Source: Strigamia acuminata
Lineage: Eukaryota
Assembly (NCBI GenBank): GCA_949358305.1
Contig: OX442314.1
Span: 16,368,001-16,432,000 of the forward strand
Direction: 5' to 3'
Length of the DNA: 64,000 bases
The notes beneath the pieces are model-generated. The model did not search any database and was not told the origin of the DNA. It saw only the letters and a program-made list of their open reading frames with translations. Positions 7,728 to 44,594 of the stretch are shown piece by piece. A program made the position numbers and the translations under genes. Numbering within the stretch: the stretch's first letter is position 1; each line of letters begins with the position of its first letter.

Positions 7728-8199
7728 CAGATTCATAATTGAAAGAAATTTTCTAAGATTACCCTATGTAACCTTTTTTTTTAATACTTGAAGTTTTTAT
7801 TCAATTGACAAATTTTGATGGATTAACAATTTTTACCTTTTATACTGTGTAGAAAGGTTAAGGTTCTAATGAATTAGCACTTTAGATGACAAATTTTAAA
7901 ACTCGATTTACCTGTGTTAATGTTCAACCGTTCTACCGTAAACGTTTATTTTGTTGACTCTAATTTTCATACATTTGTTACGGATTTCTGGAAATATTTT
8001 TGAATTGTTTGTTGAACATGAGTAAAATAATCAAATTTTGGTTTGAAAAAATGTATTTTTATATATATCCTTGTTGAACATAATTTTTATAAATTTTGTT
8101 TGTTATTCATGTATTTTATTATAGAGTCAATTGTATCTTTGTACGAATAAATACTTCAGAAGGTAAAAATAATTTTTTTTATTTTTATTGAGATCATTT

Positions 8200-25390: not shown

Positions 25391-25809
25391 TATAGTACAC
25401 CGATTTTAGCTCTTGAATGAATCAAGTTTCTGATGACAGTGTCGAATGATTAAAATAATGCGTTATTTTGTAACTTTGTAATCGATAAGCTAGTACATTA
25501 TTTGAAAAGTGGTATCCGCCTTCCCCATTCAGCATTCGACGGCTTTCATTCGCAATGCTTTTCTCGTGCAATTTGTTACGCCCATTGCCATTGCTTTAAA
25601 AAATAACAAATACAATTTTAAAATTTAATCAACAACACAAAGAATTGCAATAAAAATATTCAAAGTACTGGATTTAAAAACTAATTAAAAATTCATCATT
25701 TTTTTAAAAAAAAAACTTTGCTTAGAATATTCTTTTGAAAAAGTTTTCTAATCAATTTGAATTTTATCTTTGTTTAACTACAAATTCAAAAGCATTAAAT
25801 CCAAAATCA

Positions 25810-25870
25810 AAACAGTCTATTCGCATTTTTAAAAACAATTGCAATGCTTCAAAAAGTTGTGATCCAGCTT
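25810..25870 (-). pseudogene. Left part of a DEG/ENaC pseudogene fragment interrupted by the Polinton
   Basis: aaacagtctattcgcatttttaaaaacaattgcaatgcttcaaaaagttgtgatcca aligns by eye to 20401-20457 (the KHCNCFKKC exon). Confidence 0.8.
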
Positions 25871-26255
25871 AGTAGTGGGTTTGTGGGGATCCTGGGCCAG
25901 TGGTTGGTGGTGAGGGGGGGTGGGGGTGGTGAGGGTTAAGTGGGGGGAGAGATAAGGGGAGGGGGAGATAAGTGGAGGGGGAGATAACGGGAGGGGGAGA
26001 TAAGGAGAGGGGGAGATAAGGGGAGAGCTAAGTGGGGGTGACTAATTGCTTCAATCAATCAGTCTTATCATTCAATCAATGTACCCTAGGCTATTATTTG
26101 TTATTGTTTTTCTTTACTTAAGTACCTTGTTGTTGTTTTTCCCAAATTTTCAAAGGACCCTTGTTTTTCTTTACTTAAGCACCTTGTTGTTGTTTTTCCC
26201 AAATTTTCAAAGGACCCTAGGCCACTTTTAATCAAAGGAGGGATATTATTGGGTA
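25871..26255 (+). repeat. Left terminal inverted repeat of the Polinton
   Basis: Reverse complement of 40923-41308. By eye it is identical over the outer ~286 bp, with a few mismatches internally. It contains a G-rich GGGGGAGATAA array and a 57-bp direct duplication (26104-26217). Confidence 0.97.
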
Positions 26256-26354
26256 GTTATCTTAACCAATGGGAAACTAGTAATGGGTATATATACTTGC
26301 AATTCCCTACTCTCTTCTCTTCACTTCTTGCAAGTGCTAGGTTTTGTTTGCATC

Positions 26355-29300
26355 ATGGAATTTAACCACATTCAGTCTGAATTTGAAGAGTTGTTTATGG
26401 AGATTGAAGAATCTCTCTTTCCTCCTATTAACACACCTAATTCACTGCTTGATGTTGATGATGAAGAAAATGGATCCAATGATTCTCCATGTTGGATTTA
26501 CAATCATTCTCTGATTTATCCACTCTCATCGTCTACCATCATCAACCAGTCTCAACACGTGCAATCTCCAACCTGTGTCCTCCAATCTCAACCTGCATCA
26601 TTTCAATCATGCAATCCATTGACATCATGTGAGTCTCCCGTTCCTCTCTTGATTAATCATCAAATCCATAATCAAGTGGTGCAACATAATATTTGTGAAT
26701 TTGAAGAGATGCTTACGGAAATTGAAGAATCTCTATTTCCTCAAGTTAACACGCCCAATCCTCTACTGGAAGAAGAAAATGGATACAATGATTCTCCATG
26801 GATTTATAATCATTCTCCAATTTATCCACTCTCACCACCTACCATCATCAACCAGTATCAACACGTGCCATCTCCATCCTGCACCAATGCGTTTCAACAT
26901 GTGCCAACTCCAACCTGCATCAATCAATCTGAATCTGCATCATCTCAATCGTGCAATCCATCGATATCATGCGAGTCTCCAGTTCCTGTGTACCACTACC
27001 AACCAAATTTACACCAAGCAAGAACAAGCCGCATCGTCAATCCCCCATCTCCTATGACTTTAGTGCAACAAATTGGAGGTGGAGAGAAAGTACATTCGTG
27101 TGAGTACTGCAAAAAAAATTTTTCTTGTTTTTCAACTTTAAAAAGGCATCTTATTCATTCACATACTCTTGCTAAAAGCACATTCGCATGCGCAATTTGT
27201 ACAAATATTTTTTCACGCAAAGATGCCTTGCTGCGACATGTTAAAAAAATTCACAATCGCAGCAAAGAGACATTTACTTGCAATGTTTGCAAAAAGTCTT
27301 TTTCTTCAAATAATAATTTACTTAAACACATGCAAGTTCACATTCATCCTTTACCCGCCGTTCCACATCCACAACCACTACCCTGCGATGATCCTTGTGT
27401 TGACGCATTAGAGGGAAACGTCAACACGTATAAAATTCCCGGTGATGATTGTGGTGATTTAAATCATTTTTTCATTCAACACCACACTCGAGTGAAACGG
27501 ATCTTAAACTTCCAATTGATTAAAAAGAAAGCGGTAAAATATTATATCGCCGTTAATATACATTTCACTCGAACATCACAGAGTGGTGATACGGAAACCG
27601 TTGCATGTTTTCGAAGCATTTGCTATATTGCGCTCGTTGAATCGGATCTCGAGGACCAATTATTGGAGGCGTACGAGAAAATTAAACGTTCTTGCGCCGA
27701 ATTTCAACGAGATGGTAGTGGTTGGGTATTTGAAGCGGTGGTAGAGATGCATGTGAATATTGGTAGATATCGCCCATTGGCTGGAAGATCTTACATCGCA
27801 CTCCCCAAATTTTTAGCAGACAAAAAAGCAATAATAAATGTACAAAATCAAGATTCTTTGTGTTTTCTCTGGAGTGTTTTAGCTGCTCTGCATCCTGCAC
27901 CTTCCCACCCTGAACGTGTTTCACATTATACCAAGTACCGAAACACTTTAGATTTAACCGGACTTTCATTCCCAATGACTCTTCAACAAATCCCCAAGTT
28001 TGAAACCATGAATTCTATTAGTGTTCATGTGTTTGGTTTCGAAAAAGAAGTGTTTCCCCTATACATTAGCAAATTGGAACATAAAACCCAAATAAATTTG
28101 TTACTTTTTGCTAATGATCAAACCCAACATTATTGTTGGATTAAAAATTTAAATAAACTGTTACATTCCTTAACACATCACAATGAATTAGCTCACTATT
28201 GTAAATATTGTCTGCATAGATGTTCGTCAGAACGGATACTAAAAGATCACTTGGAGTACTGCTCAACCCATGGACTACAAAAAGTTAAATACCCCACCGA
28301 TGAAACAAAATGGATGCACTTTACTGATTTCCATAAACAATTTAAAGTCCCATTTGTAATATATGCGGATTTCGAGTCACTGCTCGTTAAAAATGTTGAA
28401 AAAGATGAGACAAGCAAAGTGCAAAAAGTGTCCAAGCACGTACCATCGGGTTATGCTTATGCCGTTATCAATACGGAAGGTAAACTGCACCAACCTCCAT
28501 CGGTATATCGAGGTGAAAATGCAGTTGATCATTTTCTTGATCATATTACTAAATTGGAAGTAGAGTTGGGAAAGCTTATGGCTTTAAATCTTCCAATGGA
28601 TTTATCAAATGAAGAAAAATTGTTTATGGAAAGTGCTACATCTTGTCACATTTGTAATAAGACATTTTTAAAAAATGAAAAGAAAGTAAGGGACCATGAT
28701 CATGCTACTGGCAAGTTCCGTGGCCCTGCTCATAATTTTTGTAATCTGATGTATCGCAGAACATCTAAACAAATTCCCGTTGTGTTTCATAACTTAAAAA
28801 ATTATGATTCACATTTGTTAATGCAGGGAATTGGAAAGTATAAAGATCGTGAAATAAGCTGTATTCCAACCAACATGCAACGATATATTACTTTTTCACT
28901 CGGAAATCTTCGATTTCTCGATAGTCTGCAATTTATGAATGCATCTTTAGAATCATTGGTTGCTAATTTATTCAAAAGTGATCCAAACCAATTCCGAATA
29001 ATGAATCAACATTTCAAACCTGATCAAATCGGTTTGTTATTACGGAAAGGTATTTTTCCATATGAGTACATGGACTCTTGGATCAAATTCAACGAAGTCC
29101 AACTTCCTCCCATATCTGCATTTTACAGTACTCTAAGTGCGCAAAGTGTATCCGAATCTGACTATATTCATGCAAAGAAAGTGTGGGATAAATTCAATAT
29201 CCTAAATCTCGGTGTTTATCAAGACCTTTATGTTTTGACTGACGTTTTGCTGCTAGCTGACGTCTTTGAAAATTTTCGATCAATTTGTTTAGAGACTTAT

Positions 29301-30779
29301 AAATTGGATTGTTGCAATTATTTCACAACACCCGGTCTCTCATGGGGGGCATGTCTGAAACTAACAGATGTTAAATTAGAACTGTTAACGGATCCGCTTA
29401 TGCATGTCTTTATTGAAAATGGTATTCGCGGTGGTATATCAATGATTAGCCATCGATTTGCTAAAGCCAATCACAAAGATATAGATGGTTATAAAAAGGA
29501 CCTTCCATCCAATCACATCATCTATCTCGATGCGAATAACTTGTACGGCTGGGCAATGAACCAATATTTACCAACTCATAATTTCAAATGGATACCGCCC
29601 ACCGATGATTTTGATGTGTTAAGCATTAGTGAAACCGGCACAAAGGGATATATTTTGGAGGTAGATTTAGAATATCCCAAAGAACTCCATGATTCCCATA
29701 ACGATTATCCTCTTGCTCCTGAACGACTAACAGTAACTGAAAACATGTTATCACCCTACAGTCTCGAACACCTTATCCTACTAGAACAAAAACATCACCC
29801 ATCTCCCAAATTAGTTCCTAACCTTGCTAACAAAACAAAATACATTATCCACTACCAAAACCTCCAATTGTATTTGAAATTGGGAATGAAAGTCACGAAA
29901 ATTCATAAAATTCTGGAATTTGAACAATCTGATTGGCTTGCAAAGTACATTGGCTTAAATACTGAGTTGCGAAAACAAGCAACCAATAGTTTTCAAAAGG
30001 ACTTCTTCAAATTGATGAATAATAGTGTTTTTGGGAAGTCGCTCGAATCCGTCAGGAAACGTGTTGATGTGAGGTTGGTGCAAAATCCAGAGCGAGTGAC
30101 TAAATTATTAAATTCACCAACTTTTCACGAGTTCAAGATTTTCAATGAAGATCTTGTAGGTGTACATTTAAAGAAAAGAAATATCCTATTAAATAGACCC
30201 ATATACGTGGGCTTTTGCATTCTAGAACTTAGCAAAGTCCTTATGTATGATTTTCATTATAATCATATCAAAAAAACATATGGGAACAAAGCCAAGTTGC
30301 TTTTTACTGATACGGATAGTTTAACGTATAATATCGAAACAGATGATATTTATGCAGACATGAAAAAAGATTTAGAAAAATTCGACACTTCAGATTATCC
30401 TTCCACACACTCCCTATACAGCACAAAGAATAAAAAGGTAATTGGAAAGTTTAAAGACGAAATGTCCGGGAAATGCATACAGGAATTTCTCGGACTTCGA
30501 TGTAAAATGTATTCGTTTAAAACAAAAGATCAAGAAAAAAAGACAGCAAAAGGTGTACCTCGAAGTGTGCGAAATCAACTTCGCCACAAAGACTACAAAG
30601 AGTGTCTATTCAACAAAATAGAAAACGCACGTTCATCAAATCAAATTCGCTCTTTCGATCACGAATTATATACAATTTTGCAAAAGAAAATTGCTTTGTC
30701 TGCTGGAGATGATAAAAGGTACATTTTGAGTGATGGTGTAACGACTCTAGCTCATGGGCATTACAATATTATTTTGTAA
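26355..30779 (+). CDS. polB: Protein-primed family B DNA polymerase with an N-terminal duplicated acidic region, three C2H2 fingers and an endonuclease VII-like insert
   Basis: Exo motifs YADFES, FHNLKNYDSH, YVLTDV; Pol motifs YLDANNLYGWAM, KLMNNSVFGK, FTDTDSL; EndoVII-like CHIC..DHDHATGKFRGPAHNFCN. The ORF opens at 26283, but a TATATA at ~26288 favours ATG 26355. Confidence 0.97.
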   Translation: MEFNHIQSEFEELFMEIEESLFPPINTPNSLLDVDDEENGSNDSPCWIYNHSLIYPLSSSTIINQSQHVQSPTCVLQSQPASFQSCNPLTSCESPVPLLINHQIHNQVVQHNICEFEEMLTEIEESLFPQVNTPNPLLEEENGYNDSPWIYNHSPIYPLSPPTIINQYQHVPSPSCTNAFQHVPTPTCINQSESASSQSCNPSISCESPVPVYHYQPNLHQARTSRIVNPPSPMTLVQQIGGGEKVHSCEYCKKNFSCFSTLKRHLIHSHTLAKSTFACAICTNIFSRKDALLRHVKKIHNRSKETFTCNVCKKSFSSNNNLLKHMQVHIHPLPAVPHPQPLPCDDPCVDALEGNVNTYKIPGDDCGDLNHFFIQHHTRVKRILNFQLIKKKAVKYYIAVNIHFTRTSQSGDTETVACFRSICYIALVESDLEDQLLEAYEKIKRSCAEFQRDGSGWVFEAVVEMHVNIGRYRPLAGRSYIALPKFLADKKAIINVQNQDSLCFLWSVLAALHPAPSHPERVSHYTKYRNTLDLTGLSFPMTLQQIPKFETMNSISVHVFGFEKEVFPLYISKLEHKTQINLLLFANDQTQHYCWIKNLNKLLHSLTHHNELAHYCKYCLHRCSSERILKDHLEYCSTHGLQKVKYPTDETKWMHFTDFHKQFKVPFVIYADFESLLVKNVEKDETSKVQKVSKHVPSGYAYAVINTEGKLHQPPSVYRGENAVDHFLDHITKLEVELGKLMALNLPMDLSNEEKLFMESATSCHICNKTFLKNEKKVRDHDHATGKFRGPAHNFCNLMYRRTSKQIPVVFHNLKNYDSHLLMQGIGKYKDREISCIPTNMQRYITFSLGNLRFLDSLQFMNASLESLVANLFKSDPNQFRIMNQHFKPDQIGLLLRKGIFPYEYMDSWIKFNEVQLPPISAFYSTLSAQSVSESDYIHAKKVWDKFNILNLGVYQDLYVLTDVLLLADVFENFRSICLETYKLDCCNYFTTPGLSWGACLKLTDVKLELLTDPLMHVFIENGIRGGISMISHRFAKANHKDIDGYKKDLPSNHIIYLDANNLYGWAMNQYLPTHNFKWIPPTDDFDVLSISETGTKGYILEVDLEYPKELHDSHNDYPLAPERLTVTENMLSPYSLEHLILLEQKHHPSPKLVPNLANKTKYIIHYQNLQLYLKLGMKVTKIHKILEFEQSDWLAKYIGLNTELRKQATNSFQKDFFKLMNNSVFGKSLESVRKRVDVRLVQNPERVTKLLNSPTFHEFKIFNEDLVGVHLKKRNILLNRPIYVGFCILELSKVLMYDFHYNHIKKTYGNKAKLLFTDTDSLTYNIETDDIYADMKKDLEKFDTSDYPSTHSLYSTKNKKVIGKFKDEMSGKCIQEFLGLRCKMYSFKTKDQEKKTAKGVPRSVRNQLRHKDYKECLFNKIENARSSNQIRSFDHELYTILQKKIALSAGDDKRYILSDGVTTLAHGHYNIIL

Positions 30780-30962
30780 AAAGTGTTATTTATTTATTTA
30801 TTTATTTTGTAAACAAAACTGTTACATATTTTTATTATTATTATATCATTATCTTATCATGTAATTTATTTTGTAAATGAAATTATTATTATTATTATTA
30901 TTATTATTTTTATAAAATAAAACCATTATTATATATATTATCGTGTCATTCTTTCACAAACC

Positions 30963-31349
30963 ATGGACAGAGCAGGATTACAGAAAAACCTGATGCTCTT
31001 ATTTGAAAATCATAAATTATGGATTACGACTGGAAGTTTCTCTGTTGTTGGATGTTGTATCGTTATTCTACAAATCATGATTCTGATGTACTCTCCTCCA
31101 ACCTTAATCCAACCAACTGTGGATGTAGTGAAAATGTTGCCTGTATCCAATGGATGCAATTCCACTTTTGATCTAGGAAATGGAAAACAACTAAATATTT
31201 GCAAACGTGGAGATGATGTAATATTTGATATCAGACAGTTTAGCAGAGCTGGTCCATCCATCAAAGGAATTAATTTAAATTGGTATCAATGGATTAGATT
31301 AACTCGAGCAATCTCTTTTCTCCATTCGAATGTAACTATTGTTAAATAA
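30963..31349 (+). CDS. PC4-like ssDNA-binding domain protein with an N-terminal hydrophobic segment
   Basis: FDLGNGKQLNI..VIFDIRQF..PSIKGINLNWYQW resembles the PC4 (Sub1) signature; it is preceded by FSVVGCCIVILQIMILMY. Confidence 0.7.
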   Translation: MDRAGLQKNLMLLFENHKLWITTGSFSVVGCCIVILQIMILMYSPPTLIQPTVDVVKMLPVSNGCNSTFDLGNGKQLNICKRGDDVIFDIRQFSRAGPSIKGINLNWYQWIRLTRAISFLHSNVTIVK

Positions 31350-31401
31350 ACAAGTGCATATGCAATGATCGAAATATATCTTTATTATTTGTGTATACAA
31401 A

Positions 31402-32496
31402 TTATAATGGTGGGTTGTCTCGTAAGTCATCAGCGGGAATCCAGGAATTAAATTCATCTCCATAACCCATCCACTTTACAAAATATAATTTATTCGCACC
31501 TTTGCCTTTAGACTTTAATACTGTTTCTACAGCATACTCCGCATCCTTGGGTTTATTAATTTTCTGCAACTCAAATTCATAAAATGTACCGAGTAAAGGT
31601 TCATCATTGTAATCTTTAAGCATATAGACAACTTCTGGTGGTCGGATTAATCGATTGGCAATATAATAAATTTGATGCGAATAGCTTCCCCTGTATCCCT
31701 TTCGGAAAACCACTTTTGATTTTGATATTCTAACACCATCACCAATATTAAACTTAAATTTTTTATGTCTTTTATTTATTGTATCACCATATAAGTGGTA
31801 AAACACTGCCGGTTCTTTCTCTTTCGTAACATCAACAGGTTTCATTCCTAATGTTCGATGAACGCTATGATTATATGAATCAATAAATGTTTGCAGTTGG
31901 TCAATATATCGATGTCTGCCGGTATATGTGAAATAAGTCCACATTTTCTGCTTTATGGTCCGATTTAATCTTTCACAAAGTGAACATTTAATATCATCAT
32001 TTTCACTTGTAAAATGTTTGATGTTATTTTTTAGTAAGAATTCCTGAAAAGCTTTATTTAAGTATTCTTTTCCCTTATCGGTCTGTAGAAAAAGGGGTTT
32101 AGTCTTGGCACGTTTTAGAATTGTTTCAAAAGCTTTTATAATATGTTGCGCAGACTTTGTTGGTAAAGCTTCAATATACGCATATCGTGAAAATACATCA
32201 ATGACAGTCATTAAATATCTATTTCCATCATTTTCCTTTGCTATGTTTCCAACTTCAACCAAATCCGATTGCCATTGGTAATTAATAGATGGTACAATAG
32301 TCTTAGAGCGTTGAAACTTGTATCGAACTGGTTTATGTAAGGTATATGAGTCTAGTCCTTGTAACCAATCTTGAATCTCCTTTCTGGTAACTTGTACCCC
32401 CCGATTACGTGCAGCATGGAACAATTTATCTCGACTACTAAATCCGGCAGGATTTCTTGGATTAAAGTAGATATCTTTCAATTGTTGCTCTGCCAT
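31402..32496 (-). CDS. Retroviral-like (rve) DDE integrase with C-terminal chromodomain
   Basis: WQSDLV, VIDVFSRY, LQTDKGKEY, CERLNRTIK; chromodomain YAVETVL..YFVKWMGYGDEFNSWIPADDL. Confidence 0.97.
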   Translation of the reverse strand: MAEQQLKDIYFNPRNPAGFSSRDKLFHAARNRGVQVTRKEIQDWLQGLDSYTLHKPVRYKFQRSKTIVPSINYQWQSDLVEVGNIAKENDGNRYLMTVIDVFSRYAYIEALPTKSAQHIIKAFETILKRAKTKPLFLQTDKGKEYLNKAFQEFLLKNNIKHFTSENDDIKCSLCERLNRTIKQKMWTYFTYTGRHRYIDQLQTFIDSYNHSVHRTLGMKPVDVTKEKEPAVFYHLYGDTINKRHKKFKFNIGDGVRISKSKVVFRKGYRGSYSHQIYYIANRLIRPPEVVYMLKDYNDEPLLGTFYEFELQKINKPKDAEYAVETVLKSKGKGANKLYFVKWMGYGDEFNSWIPADDLRDNPPL

Positions 32497-32544
32497 ATGT
32501 TTTTCTAACTTTGTTCTATGCTCCTAGTTATACTGTTTATTTCT

Positions 32545-33429
32545 TTATTTTTTTTTCTTTTTTTGTGAACCGGAACTTGGTGTTTTATATTTGAATAAAC
32601 TCTCGTCTTGATCTCGTTGAAATCTTAAAGATTTGTTTGGTGTTCCGTAATGTGCCCAAGTGTTCTCTAAGTCTGACAGCTCTTGATCTTGATCTGATAG
32701 TGTTTGATTATTGATGATGGAGTCATTTCCACTCAATGACTCTCTATGAATGTCCCTAGTAATTGTGGGAGTTGAAGTGCTCATCGGTCTAATTAATTCC
32801 TTTCTTAAATTCTTGTTTATAATGTATTCTTTTGGTACATTTGAATCAATCAAAATTTTAATATACTCTGACTGACCAATCGGAATTACATTTTGCTTCG
32901 GGCGGTTTCTTATGGTATAGTTTATAAGATCAGCTTTGGTTGTATTTGGAATTTTTACTCCATCTATAATCATTTCCGATAGATTGCTCCATTTCAACCT
33001 TGGATTCAAATTCATAACTTCCATTAACGCAATAGCTTGTTTCTTTTGATCTTTTGACATTTTATTCAACATTATTTTATCCAATGGTTGAAGAACAAAT
33101 GGCGATTGAGATGTGGATAAGTGCGAAACAATTGGTGGTGGTGATTGAGGTGGAGATGCGGATTGAGTTGGAGGTGATATAGTAACAGTTTTTGGTGCAT
33201 TTAATTGTTTAATTAGCTTTTGTTTAAAGTTTCCAAATTGCGATTGAAGTGTCGATATAAGTTTAGCTTTCATTTCATCATTCAAGTTTGCATCATTGAA
33301 AATTTCCTCTATTGACGATTCAATCTTTTGCAATTTTTGATATTGCGGATCAATATCATCATAGTTCTTTTTCGAATATTGTAAAGATGACATCATTTCC
33401 TGCGGTACTAAAACCATTTTCCTAGCCAT
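32545..33429 (-). CDS. Polinton protein of unknown function (coiled-coil N-terminus, Pro/Ser linker, basic tail)
   Basis: 294-aa intronless ORF starting MARKMVLVP; LKWSNLSEMIIDGVKIPNT-type block; lies between the core-protein and integrase genes; overlaps the upstream stop codon. Confidence 0.75.
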   Translation of the reverse strand: MARKMVLVPQEMMSSLQYSKKNYDDIDPQYQKLQKIESSIEEIFNDANLNDEMKAKLISTLQSQFGNFKQKLIKQLNAPKTVTISPPTQSASPPQSPPPIVSHLSTSQSPFVLQPLDKIMLNKMSKDQKKQAIALMEVMNLNPRLKWSNLSEMIIDGVKIPNTTKADLINYTIRNRPKQNVIPIGQSEYIKILIDSNVPKEYIINKNLRKELIRPMSTSTPTITRDIHRESLSGNDSIINNQTLSDQDQELSDLENTWAHYGTPNKSLRFQRDQDESLFKYKTPSSGSQKKKKK

Positions 33430-33757
33430 TTTGTTTACTAATTAGTTTACCTACTAATGCTCCAATAATTGGGGCGAGTAGTTGCGGTAAAAATCCACCA
33501 GTTTGAATGACCAAGTTCCGTCTTTGTTTGAATGAAGATGTAGGAGTGGCCAATTTTCTTAACAACCTTCTCTTTCGATAAAGTGATTGTTTCTGATTTG
33601 CTCCTAACTTAATTGTACCTTTTATAATGTTTAAACAAATTTCACAGATGGTTTTACAGAAATCATCGTTAGAATGTTTGAGAAAATCCTTGATTTGTCT
33701 CTTATTTAAATCGGGAATGGCCCGGAGCACATTGGCGTGACGTCTTACTCGTTTCAT
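33422..33757 (-). CDS. Small basic Polinton virion/core protein with an amphipathic C-terminal peptide
   Basis: Arg/Lys-rich; ICEICLNIIKG; QTGG followed by FLPQLLAPIIGALVGKLIS. Confidence 0.8.
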   Translation of the reverse strand: MKRVRRHANVLRAIPDLNKRQIKDFLKHSNDDFCKTICEICLNIIKGTIKLGANQKQSLYRKRRLLRKLATPTSSFKQRRNLVIQTGGFLPQLLAPIIGALVGKLISKQNG

Positions 33758-33766
33758 TGGTGGAAT

Positions 33767-34366
33767 CTATATGTAAACTATAGTATATTCATCCGGAAAT
33801 ATATTAGTCTTCACTCTTTGATCTTGGGGTGTATCCGGTTTCAAATCAATTAATAAATACCCAAAACTTTGCGCTGTTGCATCGTTAAATGCTGATATGA
33901 AAAATTTACCTCGCTGTGGGAACATTTGACTCCCTACTTTTGCGATTTGATTCATATCCCTTGGATTTCGAAAAAGGATTAAATAGTGACTATTTAAAGA
34001 TAAAGTTCGTTGATATTTGCTTTGATGAAATATGTTTTGGCATAAATAAAATACACTAGTGCTCGTATGGTGCGAATATTTAGTCCACAATAACCCAATC
34101 TCTTGATTTAAATTTTCCATTTGATCGTCAATGATGAAAAGCTTTCTCGTTGATGAATCCAAAGTCTTTAAATTGGGTAATCCTTCGTGGAACTGCACAT
34201 TGGGAAATTCGATATACCACTGTTGCCATATTGAATAGTACCAGCAAATATCTTGTGGGGGTGGATCAATCATTTTACTCGCATTTCGGATAATTTTCTT
34301 ACATATCTCCGTTTTGCCCGTACCCGAACTTCCAGAAATAATAGCAGTAAATGGATGATGAAACAT
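33767..34366 (-). CDS. A32/FtsK-like genome packaging ATPase
   Basis: Walker A GSSGTGKT, Walker B LFIIDDQ, SHH, LSLNSHYLILFRNPRD, FGYLLIDL. Confidence 0.95.
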   Translation of the reverse strand: MFHHPFTAIISGSSGTGKTEICKKIIRNASKMIDPPPQDICWYYSIWQQWYIEFPNVQFHEGLPNLKTLDSSTRKLFIIDDQMENLNQEIGLLWTKYSHHTSTSVFYLCQNIFHQSKYQRTLSLNSHYLILFRNPRDMNQIAKVGSQMFPQRGKFFISAFNDATAQSFGYLLIDLKPDTPQDQRVKTNIFPDEYTIVYI

Positions 34367-34419
34367 TGTTCATATAAGAGGTGATGTCACCTCAATGATG
34401 CAATCAGAAGTGAGCAGGC

Positions 34420-35550
34420 ATGGATCCGGAACAGAGTTTCTATGTGAGTCTTCCATCAAATAGCAGCTTAGATTATTACCCGAATAATACATTGACGGAA
34501 TTTCATACGCAATTACCATCATATATTAATTTAGATGAAAATTGGGAAGTGGGTCTGGTTGGATTCCTTTATCCAAGAAGCTGGAGTACTGCTCTATTGC
34601 CCCGAGGTGCCGATTTTCGAATACTGAAGAATGAAGTCAATGCAATCAAATTTCCACCATTCAAATTTGTGGATGCATCCCTACCGCAGGATAAGCTAAT
34701 ATCCGAGTTTCTTAACTTTTTAAATAATAATTTAACATCTCCAACCAAGAAAGATGAGAAAGTTAAAGATCTTGACAAAGCATTGCAAAAATTAGGAATT
34801 AAATTTCACTGGAATTCCACTCGTTTAAGATTTGAAATAATAATTATGCCTAAGTTTCAAGTCATGATCCCGCAGAGGCTGGCATATGTGTTAGGTTTTG
34901 TGAAAGATGAAGATGATGATTTTTACGCTGATGAATCCAAGACGGCTCGTGATTCTCCACGTCTCACACCAAATCTTATCAATGATAAAAATTGGAATTT
35001 ATCAATTGAAAAGGAGACTGATGGTAAACAGAAACAAAGCTTGAAACCTGGAAATTATTCGGGACCTGATCAATTAGTAGATGCTTTAAATCTTAAAGCA
35101 CTCGTAGTTATTGATAAAGCACCATTTAGTTTTAATATATCATCAAAGAAAATTGAGATTAACTTGCCAATTAACACCAAGTTGGTTCTTGATAAAGCCT
35201 TGGCATCAACTCTCGGTTTTAATGATTTGCGTGTAATTACAAAAACAACAGAAGCTTTTCATAAAATGGATGAACAAGTTGGACTATATCATATGTACTT
35301 GTATTGCAATCTAATACAACCAAACATTGTTGGGGATACTTTAGCGCCACTGTTAAGAATAATACAGATTCAAGGAAAAGAGCGAGGACAATACATCTCC
35401 CAAACTTTTGAAAATCCACATTATAAACCGCTGGCAAAATTGCAATTTGAATCCATACAAGTGCTTATAAGGGGTGACACCGGAGAAAAAGTACCATTCG
35501 AGTTTGGACGTGTCGTTGCAACGTTACACTTCAGGAAGAGATTGGATTGA
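34420..35550 (+). CDS. Minor capsid (penton-like, PX) protein
   Basis: FYVSLPSNSS..YPNNTLTEF..WEVGL N-terminus and MYLYCNLIQPNIVGDTLAPLLR..PHYKPL..LHFRKR C-terminus, typical of Polinton minor capsid proteins. Confidence 0.88.
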   Translation: MDPEQSFYVSLPSNSSLDYYPNNTLTEFHTQLPSYINLDENWEVGLVGFLYPRSWSTALLPRGADFRILKNEVNAIKFPPFKFVDASLPQDKLISEFLNFLNNNLTSPTKKDEKVKDLDKALQKLGIKFHWNSTRLRFEIIIMPKFQVMIPQRLAYVLGFVKDEDDDFYADESKTARDSPRLTPNLINDKNWNLSIEKETDGKQKQSLKPGNYSGPDQLVDALNLKALVVIDKAPFSFNISSKKIEINLPINTKLVLDKALASTLGFNDLRVITKTTEAFHKMDEQVGLYHMYLYCNLIQPNIVGDTLAPLLRIIQIQGKERGQYISQTFENPHYKPLAKLQFESIQVLIRGDTGEKVPFEFGRVVATLHFRKRLD

Positions 35551-35554
35551 CAAG

Positions 35555-36037
35555 ATGAGATTTCACTATGAACTAAACCCTCAAATCTGCATGGATAGAT
35601 ATTGCTCAAATCATGCGCAAATAGGTGGAGCAGATCTTCCTATATTTGTAGGATCTCGCTATCAACAAGGACATGGTTTGGGTTCACTTATAAGTGACGC
35701 ATTTCGAATTGTAAAGCCTTTTGTGAGAAGTGGAGCGTTGGATGCAGCAACGTATGGTTTGAAGAGAGGATTAGACGTAATTTCCGATATGCGTGTAAAC
35801 AAGAGAAAATTTGGAAATGCATTTAAAGATCAGGTTGTTCGAACCAAATCGGATTTTTTAAAAAAGATTGGTGTACAGAAAGGAGGCAAACAAAAGCGGA
35901 TGGATGGTAAACAAAAGAAAAGACGTGTAACCAAACAAAAGAATCAGTCTAAGAGACGAACTCGACCAAAGAAGAACGTGCGTAGGAAGTCCTGCAAAAG
36001 GAAAACTTCACTTCTTGGACCTGACATATTTGATTAG
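35555..36037 (+). CDS. Basic core/virion protein (PZ-like) with putative protease sites
   Basis: QIGG, F.GSRYQQGHGLGSL, QKGG, very Lys/Arg-rich tail ending DIFD; lies between the penton and major capsid genes. Confidence 0.8.
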   Translation: MRFHYELNPQICMDRYCSNHAQIGGADLPIFVGSRYQQGHGLGSLISDAFRIVKPFVRSGALDAATYGLKRGLDVISDMRVNKRKFGNAFKDQVVRTKSDFLKKIGVQKGGKQKRMDGKQKKRRVTKQKNQSKRRTRPKKNVRRKSCKRKTSLLGPDIFD

Positions 36038-36039
36038 CC

Positions 36040-37377
36040 ATGCCGCAATTTCCCCATGAATCATCTGCCGAAGGCGCGACTCCAGAACTAGACATTTTTG
36101 GATTACCACTCACACAAATAACAGTGGAAGATAATTATTGGAGTGAATACCATCCAATTACAGCCGTAACTGCAGGACAGCCATTAGATTTTTCAATCAA
36201 GGGTACTGCTGATACGTACATTGACTTGAGTCAAACATACTTGTTACTAAATGTAACTGTAACCGATGGTGCTGGGGCTGTAATTACAAAAACAGCTAAG
36301 GTTTCTCCTACAAATTTATTCCTACATTCATTGTTCAGTCAAATAGATGTTAGACTAAATGATAAGCTAGTGTCAGCTTCCGATTCAAATTATTGTTATA
36401 GAAGTTATCTCGAAACAATTCTCAGTTTTTCAAATGATGCCAAAAAGAGTTATAAAACAGTGGAGATGTATTATGAGGATACAGGAGGATCATTTGATGA
36501 TTTAGATCCAACAGTAGCAGATTTTAACGAGGAGTTTGGAATTTATAAACGATATCATCGACTCATGCAGGATGGTGATTGTGGAAAATTACAGATGTTT
36601 GGAAGACTTCACTGCGATATCTTTTCTCAACCACATTATCTCATAAATAATGTTGACTTGCGAATTACACTTACTAGACAAAATGATGCATTTAGTTTAA
36701 TTTCAAAAGAGGCAGGGGCGGCCTATAAAACAGTTATAAATGATGCAACTTTATTTGTAAAAAAGATAGTTCCTAGCGCTAGTGTACTCTTAGCTCATCA
36801 TCAAGCATTAGAGCAACGTAATGCGAAATATCCCATTAGAAGGGTAGAAGTTAAGACATTTACAATTGCTACAGGATCGCAAACTGCTATGATTGATAAT
36901 GCATTTCTCGGTCAATATCCATCCCGATTGATTATTGGTCTTGTGAAAAACACTGCCTACTGCGGATCATATGCCAGTAATCCGTATAATTTTGAAAACC
37001 AAGGAATAAATTTTCTTCAAGTATTTTTGGATGGAAAAGGAGTACCAATGAGTCCATATAAGCCAGATTTTGCAAAAGGACAAGCAGCTCGTGAATTTAT
37101 TACCTTATACCAAACTATGAATAGAGCAGATAAAGATTTAGGATTAGGCATTTCGTATACTGATTATTGTTTAGGCGGAAATGTTTTATTTGGATTTGAT
37201 TTAACGCAAGATGCATCCGCCGGTCAACCACATTTGAATTTAGTAAAACAAGGAAATGTTAGGATTGAAATGAGATTTAATAAAGCCTTAACTGCAACCA
37301 TAACCGTATTAGTACTGGCGGAATATCAATCCATACTGGAGATTGATAGAGCGAGGAATATCATTACTGAATTTTAA
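36040..37377 (+). CDS. Major capsid protein (double jelly-roll, PY)
   Basis: 445 aa; ELDIF..P.TQ, YIDLSQTYL, NLFLHSLFSQIDV, GRLHCDIFSQ, G...NPYNF, LFGFDLT, GNVRIEMRF. Confidence 0.93.
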   Translation: MPQFPHESSAEGATPELDIFGLPLTQITVEDNYWSEYHPITAVTAGQPLDFSIKGTADTYIDLSQTYLLLNVTVTDGAGAVITKTAKVSPTNLFLHSLFSQIDVRLNDKLVSASDSNYCYRSYLETILSFSNDAKKSYKTVEMYYEDTGGSFDDLDPTVADFNEEFGIYKRYHRLMQDGDCGKLQMFGRLHCDIFSQPHYLINNVDLRITLTRQNDAFSLISKEAGAAYKTVINDATLFVKKIVPSASVLLAHHQALEQRNAKYPIRRVEVKTFTIATGSQTAMIDNAFLGQYPSRLIIGLVKNTAYCGSYASNPYNFENQGINFLQVFLDGKGVPMSPYKPDFAKGQAAREFITLYQTMNRADKDLGLGISYTDYCLGGNVLFGFDLTQDASAGQPHLNLVKQGNVRIEMRFNKALTATITVLVLAEYQSILEIDRARNIITEF

Positions 37378-37385
37378 CTCAAGCT

Positions 37386-37910
37386 ATGAACACGCTCCAA
37401 ATAACGGAGATTTTATCTAAGAATTCAGTGACGAGGCAAATTTTTAAAGGTGTATATCCAATTGATTTGCTATCCTCATCGCAACAAACAAACAAAACAT
37501 GCGCGTTTGTTGTAAATACTCATCCCCATACAAAACCAGGCGAACATTGGGTAGCATTGTTTCGAGATGAGAAAGTACCCGGTGCGATTGAATATTTTGA
37601 TTCGTTCGGTAAACCACCAGCGAAAGAAATTACTGCTTTTATTCAAAATATTGGATGTAAACTAACCAACAGGATTACTCAAACCTATCAATCACCGTGT
37701 AGTCTCGCATGTGGATATTATTGCATTTATTTTATTTATAATAGGTGTAAAGGAAAAAGCTTTGATTATATAAAAAATCAATTTAATCCAAGAAATCCAT
37801 ATTACAATGATAAAAAAGTTACAAAATTTGTTAAACATATTTTTAATTTTAAGATGTCAACATTGTATGATAAAAATTGTATCGTACAAATAAGTAAAAC
37901 AAAGAAATAA
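37386..37910 (+). CDS. Adenain/Ulp1-like cysteine maturation protease
   Basis: Catalytic H-D-C set with the oxyanion Gln: GEHWVA, EYFDSFG, YQSPCSLACGYYC. Confidence 0.95.
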   Translation: MNTLQITEILSKNSVTRQIFKGVYPIDLLSSSQQTNKTCAFVVNTHPHTKPGEHWVALFRDEKVPGAIEYFDSFGKPPAKEITAFIQNIGCKLTNRITQTYQSPCSLACGYYCIYFIYNRCKGKSFDYIKNQFNPRNPYYNDKKVTKFVKHIFNFKMSTLYDKNCIVQISKTKK

Positions 37911-37939
37911 AGTAATTGTTACAAAATCTGGTGTTTCTA

Positions 37940-38266
37940 TCAACCTGGTGTATCTAACCCATAGATGGATTTATAAATCAACCACTCTTCATTCAGTCCT
38001 TTTTCAAAAGTAATTCTCATTAATGGACAATAGGCATACCAAGAATAATGTTCCAAAAGAGGTATGTCACCACGTTTCCACTCTTTTAATCGACCGAGAC
38101 AGTAGACGCACTCAACATGATCATTTTCACCCAAGTATTTGAATCCAGCACGGGCTAAGGTGGAAGGGTCGGCGATGTGTCTAGAAACAGGCCAGTTGCG
38201 AAAGGTTTGCTTCCGTTCCCGGATTCGCCGCATCATCTCCGTTCGCATTTTCATTTCCCGTTCCAT
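37940..38266 (-). CDS. Single BIR-domain (IAP-like) protein carried by the Polinton
   Basis: RKQTFRNWP..LARAGFKYLGENDHVECVYCLGRLKEWKRGDIPLLEHYSWYAYCP contains the C-x2-C..W..H-x6-C zinc-binding BIR pattern. Confidence 0.92.
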   Translation of the reverse strand: MEREMKMRTEMMRRIRERKQTFRNWPVSRHIADPSTLARAGFKYLGENDHVECVYCLGRLKEWKRGDIPLLEHYSWYAYCPLMRITFEKGLNEEWLIYKSIYGLDTPG

Positions 38267-38870
38267 GAAGGAGGGCTTCAAGATCGTCGAGATAAGAATG
38301 GTCTTGAGTTTCAATACACCACTCCTTAAAGCAAAGACACTCAGCTTGAGGACAGTGCATTAACTTGGAGGGAAGTAGGGATTCATGAAGGTGACATAAA
38401 GGTTTTGAATCAGGATCAAGATTAAAATGAAGGTCCTGATATTTTGGACATCCCAATGATTCCAGGTCGAGGTATGGAATGTCACATTTGATTAACCAAT
38501 TTTTTTCAATTTGGCCTCCTTTGAATGCAATAATTGGTCTGTTGGCTTCCTGAACACAATTTATATGTAAAGATGTGAGGATAAAAGGAATCCAGCTTTG
38601 AGGTAGATCATCAGGACCATCTTCAAACTTCATACCGTGGATATTACGTTTTAACCAAGCAGCAACTTTTTGCCATTTTGGTTCTAGTTTGTCAAATTGT
38701 CCAACACGAAAGTGATAACTTAAAGTAGAATCCTTGTATAGAAAACACACTCCGAGCTCCTTGAGTAGAAAGTCGGGACCAAACTGGAATCCCTCAAAGT
38801 CAATAATACAACCTACGTTTTTTAATTGTTCCGAATTCATTCTAAAACACGAATTAAAATAAATATTCAT
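38181..38870 (-). CDS. DEDD/DnaQ-like 3'-5' exonuclease-fold protein
   Basis: IIDFEGFQ..LLKELGV, LKRNIHGMKF, AFKGGQIEKNWL, DLESLGCP, CHLH..HCPQAEC. Alternative start at 38840. Confidence 0.7.
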   Translation of the reverse strand: MNIYFNSCFRMNSEQLKNVGCIIDFEGFQFGPDFLLKELGVCFLYKDSTLSYHFRVGQFDKLEPKWQKVAAWLKRNIHGMKFEDGPDDLPQSWIPFILTSLHINCVQEANRPIIAFKGGQIEKNWLIKCDIPYLDLESLGCPKYQDLHFNLDPDSKPLCHLHESLLPSKLMHCPQAECLCFKEWCIETQDHSYLDDLEALLHGTGNENANGDDAANPGTEANLSQLACF

Positions 38871-39559
38871 TTATAATAATATCATTAAATAAATGGAACT
38901 TACTTTGAATGATGTTTCTAAAAGTTAAGTTGATTCGCGGATGAAGTGCAGAAATTTGCTTTGGAAGACTGTGATACCAAAAACGGTTTGTAGGTTGGTG
39001 CATTAGCAGAATGCTACCGTGTTCCAACGCGAGAGAAATCGGCTTTGGTGGTAAGACTGAGTTGCGAATAGTATACTTTCGCTTAAGAGACACGTGACGA
39101 AGAACAAAGTTTCTGTTTTGTCCTAGAGACAGGCTCGCTATTGGTGCGTTTGGATGAAGTCCCACCTCATCGTCTCGATGTTCACCAATAGTCTGGTTGC
39201 CATTTGCATAACGATTAACGAGAACAAAGTTAAATTCATGTCCGGTAACAAACTGAACGGCATCTCGTAAATCACGCAAAAGAGGAGTCCAAGTTTTAAC
39301 CGGTAAAGTATTACCAGAAAATGAATATTTCAATCCATCATCACCAAATGCAACTTGTTGTCTCGGTATATTGATCCACTTGCCATAAATCTTGATTTGA
39401 CTCACAAGTCAGTCTACCTGTATAGTATGTGATTTCATTTTCCAGCTTTTGAAATGTAGAATCAGCTACTTCTTTGTTGAAAAGAAGCCCATACTGCAAG
39501 TGTAAATCCTGCTTGGGAATATCTTTCCAACAAACAGGCTCTATTGTCGTCTTCTCCAT
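38854..39559 (-). pseudogene. ALKBH2-like AlkB dioxygenase with a frameshift near 39401-39412
   Basis: 5' ORF gives LFNKEVADSTFQKLENEITYYTG. The 3' ORF, in another frame, gives QIKIYGKWINIPRQQVAFGD..FNFVLVNRY..GEHRDDE..WYHSLP..RINLTFR. Confidence 0.88.
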
Positions 39560-39626
39560 GTTTTTTCATCCAAAAGAAACATCAGCTCGGTATATATAGC
39601 AGTTAACCTATTCTGCTGTCCAATCG

Positions 39627-39940
39627 GAGACATGTCTAAACTTGCCCCCCCAAGCGGTTTCAACAAATTATAGCAGAGGACTCCTCCCCTTTGCACCGCT
39701 CACTTCCTGTTTTATCCCCCCTTCCAAACAGTGCCATTGCTGAGACATGTTGAAACTTGTCTAAAATGGTTTCAACGAATCATAGCAGAGGAGACATTTG
39801 CACCACTCACTTTCTGTTTTATCCTCCCTTCCAAACAGTGCAATTGATGAGACATGAAACTTGTCTAAAATGGTTTCAACGAATCATAGCAGAGGACAAC
39901 GTTGCACCGCTCGCTTCCTGTTTTATCCTCCATTTCCACT
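39627..39940. repeat. Three imperfect tandem copies of a ~107-115-bp unit upstream of the AlkB gene
   Basis: GAGACATG recurs at 39627, 39742 and 39849, each followed by ggtttcaac..atagcagagga..ttgcacc.ctc.ctt.ctgttttatcc. Confidence 0.9.
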
Positions 39941-40140
39941 AATATAACACAAACACCCTTATTACAACTTAACTTATTTGTTAAAGAAATTAATGAAAGA
40001 AAAAAGATGTATTCTTATTCAAACAAATTTTATTTATATAATTAACACAAAAAAAAAAAGAAATAAGTACAAAAAAAAAAATTTAAACTAAAGTATACAA
40101 TTTCTATTCTACCAATACAAATAACAAATTAACTATAAAT

Positions 40141-40797
40141 CTATTCATCATCATCAGTATCGACAGGTACACTGGTAGGTTTTGAATCGACATCCTCATC
40201 AGAAGAATCCACAAAATGCACACCAGGAATGGGTCTCTGATATGGTTTCTTCTTCATTTGCTTTCTCTCCTTTTTCTTTTTTAAAACAATTGGAGCTTGA
40301 GATGTGGTCGGAGTAACAAATGAACTTGCAGTTGTTTCCTCGGGAATAGCTGGAAATTGAAGGTTGCTCTCTTGCAACTTTGACAGAGCTTCATCGATGC
40401 CCGAAAATATGGATGATCGCTGCTTCTTGAGTTGACGCCATTGTTCATACGAAAGCAGAATAAACTTCTCTGGCGCAAATGAATGACATATCATCAAAGA
40501 TACATCATCAGTTTTCGACTTGGAAATAGTGACTAAAACACCACCTACACACTCAATGGTTGATGATTTCTTGGTTTTTAAATTCGCAATTTCACTCGTT
40601 ATCTGCTTCCAATGTTCCACAAAATCATAAAATGTCTTAACGTTCATGCACATACCATCACGAGAGGGATACAGCTTTCCGTTCGGGTATGTCAGAAATC
40701 GTCTTAGGTGGATGTAGACTCCAGCTAGAAATGGATTGACTTGACAATAGATCTCCCCACCAAGAGAGTAGATCCCGCTGCTTGAAGTAGTAGTCAT
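40141..40797 (-). CDS. PC4-like ssDNA-binding protein (probably two PC4-like units) with basic NLS and acidic tail
   Basis: YSLGGEIYCQV..GVYIHLRRF..LYPSRDGMCM; second unit ending FILLSYEQWRQLK; KKKKERKQMKKKP; DTDDDE tail. TATAAA at 40845-40850 favours ATG 40797. Confidence 0.7.
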   Translation of the reverse strand: MTTTSSSGIYSLGGEIYCQVNPFLAGVYIHLRRFLTYPNGKLYPSRDGMCMNVKTFYDFVEHWKQITSEIANLKTKKSSTIECVGGVLVTISKSKTDDVSLMICHSFAPEKFILLSYEQWRQLKKQRSSIFSGIDEALSKLQESNLQFPAIPEETTASSFVTPTTSQAPIVLKKKKERKQMKKKPYQRPIPGVHFVDSSDEDVDSKPTSVPVDTDDDE

Positions 40798-40922
40798 GGC
40801 TTGTTTGTGAAAGAAATGGTGAGTATCCCAAAATGCGAGTTGCATTTATACAGGATAACTCCTCCCCTTTGAACCGCTCACTTCCTGTTTTACCCTTCCT
40901 TTCCATCACTGACATTGATGAG

Positions 40923-41308
40923 TACCCAATAATATCTCTCCTTTGGTTAAAAGTAGCCTAAGGGTCCTTTGAAAATTTGGGAAAAACAACAACAAGGTGC
41001 TTAAGGAAAGAAAAACAAGGGGCCTTTGAAAATTTGGGAAAAACAACAACAAGGTACTTAAGTAAAGAAAAACAATAACAAATAATAGCCTAGGGTACAT
41101 TGATTGAATGATAAGACTGATTGATTGAAGCAATTAGTCACCCCCACTTAGCTCTCCCCTTATCTCCCCCTCTCCTTATCTCCCCCTCCCGTTATCTCCC
41201 CCTCCACTTATCTCCCCCTCCCCTTATCTCTCCCCCCACTTAACCCTCACCACCCCCACCCCCCCTCACCACCAACCACTGGCCCAGGATCCCCACAAAC
41301 CCACTACT
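40923..41308 (-). repeat. Right terminal inverted repeat of the Polinton
   Basis: Reverse complement of 25871-26255; ends ...CCCACTACT followed by the CAGCTT TSD. Confidence 0.97.
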
Positions 41309-41732
41309 CAGCTTCGAGATGAAGGCTGAATACATTTCATAAACTCCTAAGAGACCATACGAATAGTTACATGTTGGTAGAGATACGTTGGTCATAAATG
41401 AGAATCTAATAAATAAATCATCAATCAAACACATCGTGGACATTTGGATTTGTACATGGGTTTTCTGGATCATTTATACGATAATCTTTAACAAATCATC
41501 AAAATTATTGGAAATTAAATCAAGAAAAATCACTGAGTGCTTATACTTTTGTGTGACCTCCAAACGGAATTGAGTAATGCAGCTATTGATTCGCATTAAC
41601 CGAAAAAAGCTAAATAAACAACAATAACAATTTATTTCTGTTACATTCACATTTTCTTGTGCCTGAAAATTGTCTCCACATCGATTCAAAAGTGATTGAA
41701 GTAAAATTATAGTAAAAATATTTGCTCCACTC
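41309..41732 (-). pseudogene. Right part of the DEG/ENaC pseudogene fragment interrupted by the Polinton
   Basis: Aligns by eye with 20455-20990 (e.g. gaatacatttcataaact, atctttaacaaatcatcaaaattattggaaa), with internal deletions. Confidence 0.8.
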
Positions 41733-42113: not shown

Positions 42114-43313
<1,200 letters not shown>

Positions 43314-44594
43314 ACACCTAAATCCTTACTATGTAATTGAAAATCGTTAAATTGGTTTATGCTAATGCTGAAACACTAGTCATGTACAAAGAAAATAAAA
43401 GTATGTTTACCGAACTGAAATTCTCTTTCAATGAAAACACGCAAATCCAGTGGACTATAAATTATTTACAGCACACATTATTCAAACTAAACCGCCTCTA
43501 AAAGCCTATAAAAGATGTTTATCTTAAAATTCAAACAGATGATTAACAATTTATAAACTGCCACATTACAGCAGACTATAAATAGACATTCATACTAAAA
43601 TAGCAGTTTCACATAGAATCATCTATTTATTTAGAAATCTTCTAGCTATAGATTAAAATGTACAAGTAAAATAAAATGTTGAAAGTAATTTAGATGTTTT
43701 TAGGCCGCTTGAAATTGAGTGCAATAAATTCCTACAAGGTCCGACGAATGTTTAGATACGAAGTCGCCACAAATTCATACAAATTCTCTTGTTTGATCGA
43801 CACTATGCCCTAGACATGGAAGTTTCACGTAAGAAATTTCCTAAGACTCAATTTCTGATTTGTTATGAAATCGAGTACTAGTAGTATTGGTTAAATCAAC
43901 CCAAAGTGCGATCTTTGCGTTACAACTTCGGATTGATGACATCATCATCGAAGATATAAATAACAACTTCAAACATTATCACCATATCCAATGCATATTC
44001 TACTTTCATCCGAGAAAAGATAACCATTTCCCAGTCTTCCATTGTCCACGTTTCATATGTTTTTGCCCAGGTTAATCTCGTTCTCTGCTGTCTTAATGTT
44101 ATAAAAAGTACAGACGAAATAAACTTCCCTTCAGTTAAGCTTTTTTAAGTTTATATACCAATGGCATCAATCTTGAGTTTCTTGACTCGGTCTTTCGTTA
44201 TCCTAACAACAGTATTAAAAGATAGACCGGGCAAATAATGATAGATAAACTTAAAACAGCTAAACAGAAGGGAAGTATATTTTGTCCTCGACTGTACAAT
44301 AAACAAAAAAACAAATCGAAAGTTGTACTTTTCCTGTATTTAATATTCAGAAATTAATTGTGACATTATTTATTGACCGGCTCATATTCTTTGAAGACTT
44401 CAAACATAATTACACCAAGCACGAAAGCTAACGATTAGAAATATTCTTTCAATCCATTACAATCTAAAAATCAAACTTAGTACATCGTGTAATAAATTAT
44501 TATCTAATAAAATATTCATTCACTCAAATAAAACAGTCGTGCCGTACATCAAGCGTCCATTTACCGCAACAGATTCGATCACAAACTATCAACC

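Follow-up and report, generated by a model that had tools for sequence, protein, structure and literature searches.

A 64,000-nucleotide stretch of contig OX442314.1 from the Strigamia acuminata assembly GCA_949358305.1 (the window, which always means this whole stretch) contains a Polinton/Maverick element of 15,438 bp at positions 25,871-41,308. We consider it quite probable that this element is a recent, coding-intact and non-fixed provirus, from a family that is probably still mobile and that, by prediction, could assemble icosahedral particles. Its assignment as a coding-intact Polinton/Maverick of the beta-adintovirus type is almost certain. The element is therefore a further example of a well-described and already documented kind, the intact and polymorphic Polintons. 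The more useful lead is its predicted accessory nuclease, which belongs to a common, unannotated family that keeps its catalytic and zinc-binding residues and could be a silencing suppressor.

Insertion, age and copy number

The element starts with AGTAGT at 25,871 and ends with ACTACT at 41,308, and is thus of the (AGT)2//(ACT)2 type; open reading frames (ORFs) cover 88% of it. The structures at its ends are as follows.

25,865-25,870, + strand: left target-site duplication (TSD), CAGCTT, single copy in empty-site contigs
25,871-26,218, + strand: left terminal inverted repeat (TIR), 348 bp, starting with (AGT)2
40,961-41,308, - strand: right TIR, ending with (ACT)2
41,309-41,314, + strand: right TSD, CAGCTT
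25,809-41,425, - strand: target, a partial and degenerate duplicate of a DEG/ENaC exon, with the element inside it

The initial annotation of this DNA had described the TSD as perfect and the TIRs as identical over their outer ~286 bp, and both descriptions hold: the 6-bp CAGCTT is present on both flanks, and the 348-bp TIRs agree throughout their outer 286 bp and differ only at offsets 287 and 303. The left TIR contains a 16-bp G-rich tandem array and two 57-bp repeats.

Most of the query sequence is also contained in three public runs (X1, X2 and X3, from two studies), which were analysed as assembled contigs. In X1 and X2, contigs run from 25,779-25,870 directly into 41,315 onward with one CAGCTT, so that the empty allele is present in two of the three runs compared at the junction, both belonging to study P1. 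Other samples of the species thus lack the element here. The insertion is not fixed. Ahead of the TIR, at least three further flanks occur, two of them in X1 and one in X3, each close to single-copy depth. Relative to the flanks, single element contigs are 7.3-8.1 times as deep in X1, 5.0-9.1 times in X2 and 4.9-8.9 times in X3, which suggests several copies per genome, depth being no strict copy number. The central block of the element is ~99.9% identical to the high-depth contigs.

The empty allele, the other insertion flanks and the multi-copy, near-identical family bear out the earlier proposal of a recent insertion, which we regard as very likely. The element is probably one among several near-identical, recently moved copies, and the balance favours a family that is still transposing. 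The insertion polymorphism that had been suggested as a check was thus found on public contigs, and the opposite case of a single fixed copy is excluded by the empty allele, the other flanks and the depth of the element contigs above that of the flanks. A second joint, from 25,866 to 41,327 (skipping 15,460 letters), was considered as an empty allele and ruled out, as it carries letters of the paralogue at 20,400-20,572. Deletion-like joints were also seen at 28,224-35,142 and 31,173-32,793, at about single-copy depth and with short sides (21 letters); they may be internally deleted copies, and are possibly false.

The same data bear on the possibility that the burst was recent but is over, the copies being intact merely through youth and now silenced by the host. 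We think this rather unlikely. It would accommodate the fact that this copy already has a frameshift in its AlkB gene as well as the two TIR mismatches, the presence of subfamilies ~85-95% alike and of deletion-like joints among the compared contigs, and the mostly degraded state of vertebrate Mavericks (PMC8097293); but the site is unfixed, the central block hardly differs from the high-depth contigs, and contexts of CpG decay are not in excess (5 of 17 listed transition sites, p 0.28, best-supported rows only).

Gene content and coding integrity

The genes and promoter-like repeats of the element are listed below. Related loci were taken from a set of 80 Polinton-like metagenomic loci (L001-L080), mostly short.

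26,283-30,779, + strand: pPolB, 1,498 aa (Pfam zf-C2H2 and Endonuclease_7; motifs; tblastn matches in 12 of 80 related loci)
30,963-31,349, + strand: small PC4-like protein, 128 aa, weak (Pfam PC4 E 0.032, below cut-off)
31,402-32,496, - strand: retroviral-like integrase with C-terminal chromodomain, 364 aa (Pfam rve 7.7e-18, Chromo 3.2e-8)
32,545-33,429, - strand: PZ-like conserved protein, 294 aa (named by position)
33,422-33,757, - strand: PM-like (GasderminX/pX-like) protein, 111 aa (named by position; weak Adeno_PX, E 0.037)
33,767-34,366, - strand: FtsK/A32-like packaging ATPase, 199 aa (weak Pfam Pox_A32/Adeno_IVa2)
34,420-35,550, + strand: predicted minor capsid protein (penton, PX), 376 aa (named by position and conservation)
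35,555-36,037, + strand: PW-like (Cupiennin-like) protein, 160 aa (named by position)
36,040-37,377, + strand: double-jelly-roll major capsid protein (MCP), 445 aa (predicted model and Foldseek)
37,386-37,910, + strand: adenovirus-like maturation protease, 174 aa (Pfam Peptidase_C5 4.2e-7; alignment)
37,940-38,266, - strand: single-BIR (IAP-like) protein, 108 aa (Pfam BIR 1.5e-19; zinc ligands intact)
38,181-38,870, - strand: predicted DEDDh exonuclease with ECHC zinc site (arenavirus NP exonuclease/Maelstrom-like)
38,854-39,560, - strand: ALKBH2-like AlkB dioxygenase, frameshifted near 39,400 (two frames; Pfam 2OG-FeII_Oxy_2)
39,668-39,934, - strand: three promoter-like repeat copies upstream of AlkB
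40,141-40,845, - strand: PC4-like protein, 234 aa (Pfam PC4 7.6e-5, just below cut-off)
40,846-40,922: fourth promoter-like repeat copy, upstream of the PC4 gene

Six core ORFs (pPolB, integrase-chromodomain, ATPase, minor capsid, MCP and protease) contain no internal stop, and the AlkB gene, split over two frames near 39,400, is the sole frame break among the ORFs examined; at the level of reading frames, the description of the core ORFs, including both capsid genes, as uninterrupted and of AlkB as the place of the only lesion found was confirmed. The catalytic motifs that the initial annotation had called intact in pPolB, integrase, ATPase and protease are likewise all present. In pPolB these are six motifs, in order, which we take to be Exo I-III and Pol A-C, and a Cys527/His616 pair, presumably that of a vOTU domain. 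D78/D140/E175 of the integrase presumably form its catalytic triad, and we assume the motifs of the ATPase and the protease to be Walker A/B and His/Asp/Cys, respectively. The ATPase is 37-50% identical to its relatives, with Walker A/B intact.

The AlkB break is absent from one high-depth contig in each of X1, X2 and X3, which makes it a lesion of this copy or of a minority. The 3' part of AlkB matches human ALKBH2 at E 9e-51. Integrity was also assessed at the columns conserved in at least 90% of the metagenomic relatives, with leave-one-out values of the latter as a comparison. The element matches 178 of 209 such columns in pPolB, 68 of 85 in the integrase, 41 of 49 in the ATPase, 22 of 28 in the protease, 35 of 41 in the minor capsid protein and 89 of 123 in the MCP; for the PM-, PW- and PZ-like proteins the values are 13/15, 16/25 and 11/19. 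In the alignment to relatives, no miss falls on a presumed catalytic residue. In X1, the capsid block 35,022-37,969 differs from a contig of depth 812 at 2 of 2,948 letters, so that few lesions there are private to this copy, and 32,687-33,697 differs from a high-depth contig at 0 of 1,011 letters.

The MCP has 461 homologues, the best of which is 45% identical. Its model (113 sequences, pLDDT 89.9) gave Sputnik 3j26 as the best Foldseek match (E 1.5e-17), followed by the PBCV-1 and iridovirus capsids, while neither the viral contig collection search nor the PDB sequence search returned a match. The ORF one gene upstream of the MCP, which has matches in 60 of the 80 loci, is the putative minor capsid gene, the order being that of PMC4028283; it gave no PDB sequence match and no named match. 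The PW-, PM- and PZ-like proteins, named after the gene order in PMC8097293 (section 7), have matches in 66, 17 and 6 of the 80 loci, those of the PZ-like protein lying between PM and the integrase or nearby. As for pPolB, no PF03175 match was obtained, and its core is without a Pfam or PDB sequence match; the Cys/His motif points to an OTU domain. The layout of vOTU-bearing polymerases is described in PMC11071308, and homing-type nucleases within Polinton polymerases are already known (PMC10748475). At its N-terminus (26,283-27,400), pPolB has a duplicated stretch of low complexity that includes three C2H2 fingers and varies in length and sequence among the family contigs.

The capsid genes are relevant to a second alternative, namely that the element is a self-synthesizing transposon moving within the cell and carrying its capsid module along without making particles. 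This appears unlikely: none of the five morphogenesis genes is interrupted, the MCP model shows a complete double jelly roll, and capsid genes of fish Mavericks were reported to be under purifying selection (PMC8097293), even if polintons without so much as polB stay mobile in insects (10.1101/2025.02.07.637071) and the present analysis, made on contigs only, includes no particle evidence.

The ATPase-PM-PZ-integrase block is inverted in the element. Deep X1 contigs read through the two edges of the block without change, so the arrangement is family-wide. It occurs in none of the 29 metagenomic loci that contain ATPase, integrase and minor capsid genes: 28 of these show ATPase...integrase followed in tandem by the minor capsid gene, all on the strand of the capsid genes, and the last locus is ordered differently. 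Because of the inversion, only 53 bp (34,367-34,419) separate the divergent starts of the ATPase and minor-capsid genes, and it is possible that this gap holds a compact two-way promoter. Among the related loci, one has its genes in a different order and includes a BIR gene (L045:5563-5775), and another has two minor-capsid-like ORFs in tandem (L080:3538-5279).

The motif repeated upstream of the AlkB and PC4 genes has four matches against 0.01 expected, and the joints among the repeats differ between copies; a promoter role would suit its position. We take its core to be ETS-like, which would fit the host RNA polymerase II. This last point speaks against a virophage-like dependence on a helper, in which particles would be made only with a co-infecting larger DNA virus and the element could possibly serve in host defence. 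We regard such dependence as improbable: by inspection, no shared late-promoter motif is evident upstream of the late genes, although Polinton-like viruses with entomopoxvirus occlusion bodies, and reactivation by giant viruses, are in print.

The predicted accessory nuclease

The ORF at 38,181-38,870 has no Pfam match, and 97 relatives are likewise without a consistent one. With HMMER, 391 representatives match it, many of them in multi-member clusters; the word-index search, the viral contig collection search and the PDB sequence search gave no match, and it has hits in 0 of the 80 metagenomic loci, which are mostly short. Cluster look-ups named only hypothetical proteins, one of them from the spider Araneus ventricosus. 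The domain spans approximately residues 17-188, and a 40-residue tail outside the family domain (38,181-38,304) overlaps the BIR ORF in another frame.

Nine acidic or zinc-binding sites are conserved, D24, D/E26, E38, E122, C159, H162, H172, C173 and E177, and 78 of the 89 family rows that span all nine (97 aligned) keep them all. They include the predicted catalytic residues D24, E26, H172 and E177 and the predicted zinc ligands E38, C159, H162 and C173, with E122, D135 or E137 as candidates for the third acidic residue. It should be noted that the likeness to DEDDh nucleases with an ECHC site was recorded from sequence before the fold results were obtained. The model (pLDDT 94.1) has a DnaQ-like fold, and its best match among 48,161 chains is the Lassa NP exonuclease (Z 12.3, root-mean-square deviation 3.4, 150 aligned), followed by the DinG exonuclease (Z 11.9) and LCMV NP (11.8), with Maelstrom at lower values (9.2-10.6). 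In a second structural comparison the Lassa protein scored Z 13.4, and arenaviruses occupied 23 of the 24 top rows, many of which are the same protein. The Lassa spacing D389-E391 and H528...D533 (PMC3675627) equals that of D24-x-E26 and H172...E177 in the nuclease. Look-alikes among viral models are an uncharacterised protein of Drosophila-associated adintovirus 2, ichnovirus ORFs and arenavirus NP. The Pfam Maelstrom profile PF13017 matches 0 of 98 family members at E 0.05.

The nuclease therefore resembles the arenavirus NP exoribonuclease and Entamoeba Maelstrom in its DEDDh residues, ECHC zinc motif and DnaQ fold, and differs from them in its low identity (16-18%) and in being a stand-alone protein in a DNA virus. 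Proteins with both DEDDh and ECHC are active exoribonucleases, whereas animal Maelstrom has lost the catalytic residues that the present family keeps (PMC3675627, PMC4408791, PMC7968707). Bidnavirus NS3, which was considered as a relative, is a four-cysteine protein (PMC4061559).

A gene labelled 'mael' or 'MAEL' has already been listed, together with an IAP, on insect adintoviruses (10.1101/2025.02.07.637071; 10.64898/2026.07.28.741253). Our ORF is likely the same gene, and the idea that it is an undescribed gene was dropped on account of the label in these two preprints. The literature searched holds no catalytic or arenavirus comparison for the Polinton 'MAEL'; figures, bioRxiv supplements and subscription papers may contain one.

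From the modelled fold and the conserved residues, the protein could be a 3'-5' RNase that lowers silencing by double-stranded RNA (dsRNA) or small RNAs, a DNA substrate being also compatible. That it is an active anti-silencing RNase can be proposed only tentatively. The fuller picture, a spreading, particle-making animal Polinton that would disarm RNA silencing with an intact arenavirus-type dsRNA exoribonuclease, is doubtful. If true, the adintovirus 'MAEL' proteins would be a widespread viral family of anti-RNAi/piRNA nucleases (391 representatives) and might connect the arenavirus NP exonucleases with Maelstrom.

Activity, surroundings and known relatives

If the element follows what is known of its family, the integrase would create the 6-bp target duplication, the excised copy would be replicated from the inverted repeats by the protein-primed polymerase, and the terminal protein would be set free by the vOTU domain of pPolB. 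The ATPase would package DNA into double-jelly-roll capsids, which the protease would mature, and new sites would be occupied through re-entry and integration. Counter-defence and repair are the likely functions of the right-hand block (BIR, DEDDh/ECHC nuclease, AlkB, PC4), where the nuclease would be degrading double-stranded or small-RNA precursors and the BIR protein would be dampening apoptosis. That particles are made in nature today is a nearly even question, on which we lean slightly to the negative.

That such an element may still replicate and form particles, as the initial annotation proposed, is the standing hypothesis of the field for integrated animal Polintons, and this copy is one more good candidate. 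Direct support in the literature consulted consists of one unpublished co-purification, of adintovirus DNA with nuclease-treated particles in insect cell culture (PMC8502044, section 12), in addition to selection data and to expression data such as those on hallmark genes in a coral (PMC11131425). Near-complete adintovirus contigs were obtained from Drosophila pools (PMC8363768), and polymorphic polinton insertions are known in insects (10.1101/2025.02.07.637071). A young, polymorphic, multi-copy family such as the present one offers a system for seeking particles, free ends and new insertions.

Several points weigh against an intact, active provirus. All the runs are assembled contigs and are silent on virions, free ends and capsid transcripts, and their depth can neither tell integrated from free genomes nor give a strict copy number. 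No RNA run was listed among those containing the sequence, and no sites at which many molecules terminate stood out, although contigs would not reveal any. The left junction of this copy is in no contig of X1-X3, so that this copy is known from the window alone; as contigs drop variants, this does not mean that it is absent from the runs. The element matches 58-87% of the conserved columns, against leave-one-out medians of 93-100% for the relatives, and its values lie at or below the low edge of theirs; the metagenomic relatives are closer to one another than to the element, and most misses are conservative, but harmful missense changes in the core genes may still be present. At several places in its 5' kilobase, the pPolB gene departs from every contig compared. 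In the case of the nuclease, the top Z is tied with that of bacterial DinG (11.9) and near that of DnaQ (11.2), so its RNA specificity rests on the zinc motif, and an Atlas match to Maelstrom of 0.90 has low recognition value. The missing junction might also suggest that a collapsed repeat was put here in error during assembly; this is most improbable, since the 6 bp duplicated are exactly those found singly in the empty allele, something that a misplaced repeat would not produce, and since the copy has private differences and so is no consensus. Four element pieces listed for a further run, X6 (share 0.03), ~90% alike or gapped and at depth 3-4, were set aside as a subfamily or DNA carry-over; a contig of this run that skips three introns of the protease gene described below looks RNA-derived.

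The window also carries spliced Rel, PLD, DEG/ENaC and protease genes of the host, which is an animal. The element lies within a cluster of DEG/ENaC (amiloride-sensitive channel) genes at 20,165-25,405 (- strand) and 44,532-47,591 (+ strand), in which some ORFs continue between channel modules and partial duplicates occur on either side of the element. An intact paralogue of the target exon is found at 20,165-20,584. The two stops left of the insertion site recur, with 0 other letters, in the X1 contig of the empty site, so the duplicate was already dead before the insertion, and the destruction of a working ion-channel exon is ruled out. A short GC-rich repeat at 24,248-24,422 with many different flanks is likely a short interspersed element (SINE) or a miniature inverted-repeat transposable element (MITE); its bins reach depths of 2,700-38,800 compared with 27-330 for the flanks, and its depth is very high in all three DNA-like runs (X1, X2 and X3).

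Further along the window, a spliced trypsin-like serine protease gene lies at 42,280-43,304 (+ strand), and its three GT-AG introns are those skipped by the X6 contig. A long single-exon dual-specificity-phosphatase ORF at 47,694-48,539 (- strand), which we take to be RNA triphosphatase-like, is possibly a retrocopy. At 60,703-63,591 a death-domain exon is followed by a DDE_Tnp_4 nuclease gene and a Myb/SANT gene on opposite strands, which appear to be a Harbinger-like pair, domesticated or mobile. A PLD-family gene, a Rel/NF-kB gene and Pus10 stand consecutively at 653-8,755.

As to known systems, a Maverick counts as intact if it combines eight ORFs free of introns with TIRs and a 6-bp TSD, the end motif being (AG)3 or (AGT)2, and 134 such elements were found in 17 vertebrates (PMC8097293). 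Together with a polinton-comprising cluster of 685 structural variants in insect pangenomes (10.1101/2025.02.07.637071), this does not bear out the rarity that the initial annotation had implied. Like the vertebrate Mavericks (Barreat and Katzourakis 2021, PMC8097293), the element has eight intronless core ORFs, TIRs, a 6-bp TSD and (AGT)2//(ACT)2 ends, the PM, PZ, PW and minor capsid genes being assigned by position and conservation, and its size and TIR length are within their ranges (12.7-24.6 kb and 46-1,447 bp). Unlike them, it resides in an invertebrate-like animal host, its proteins are at most 45% identical to any listed homologue, and its integrase gene shares a strand with the ATPase-PM-PZ genes, pPolB and the capsid genes both being on the other one.

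Beta adintoviruses, or group 1 Polintons (Starrett et al. 2021, PMC8502044), are the class with a divergent OTU-bearing PolB and no pfam03175 match (PMC8502044, PMC11071296). The element is placed with them because its polymerase has the vOTU-type Cys/His pair and no PF03175 match, and it shares with them the chromodomain integrase, hexon, a predicted penton, FtsK, adenain, a pX-like gene and an IAP; AlkB and PC4 are not mentioned for this class in the accessible text of PMC8502044, including one supplement. The metagenomic loci L001-L080 have the same core genes, with an MCP identity of 37-45%. The 'mael'-associated polintons and adintoviruses of insects (10.1101/2025.02.07.637071; 10.64898/2026.07.28.741253) resemble the element in their Maelstrom-like gene and polymorphic insertions, and those of leafhoppers also in their IAP. 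In the insect survey, mael and cupiennin/gasderminX belong to separate subclusters, whereas here a MAEL-like gene stands beside PM/PW-like genes; this combination and the inverted ATPase-integrase block are the small novelties of the element.

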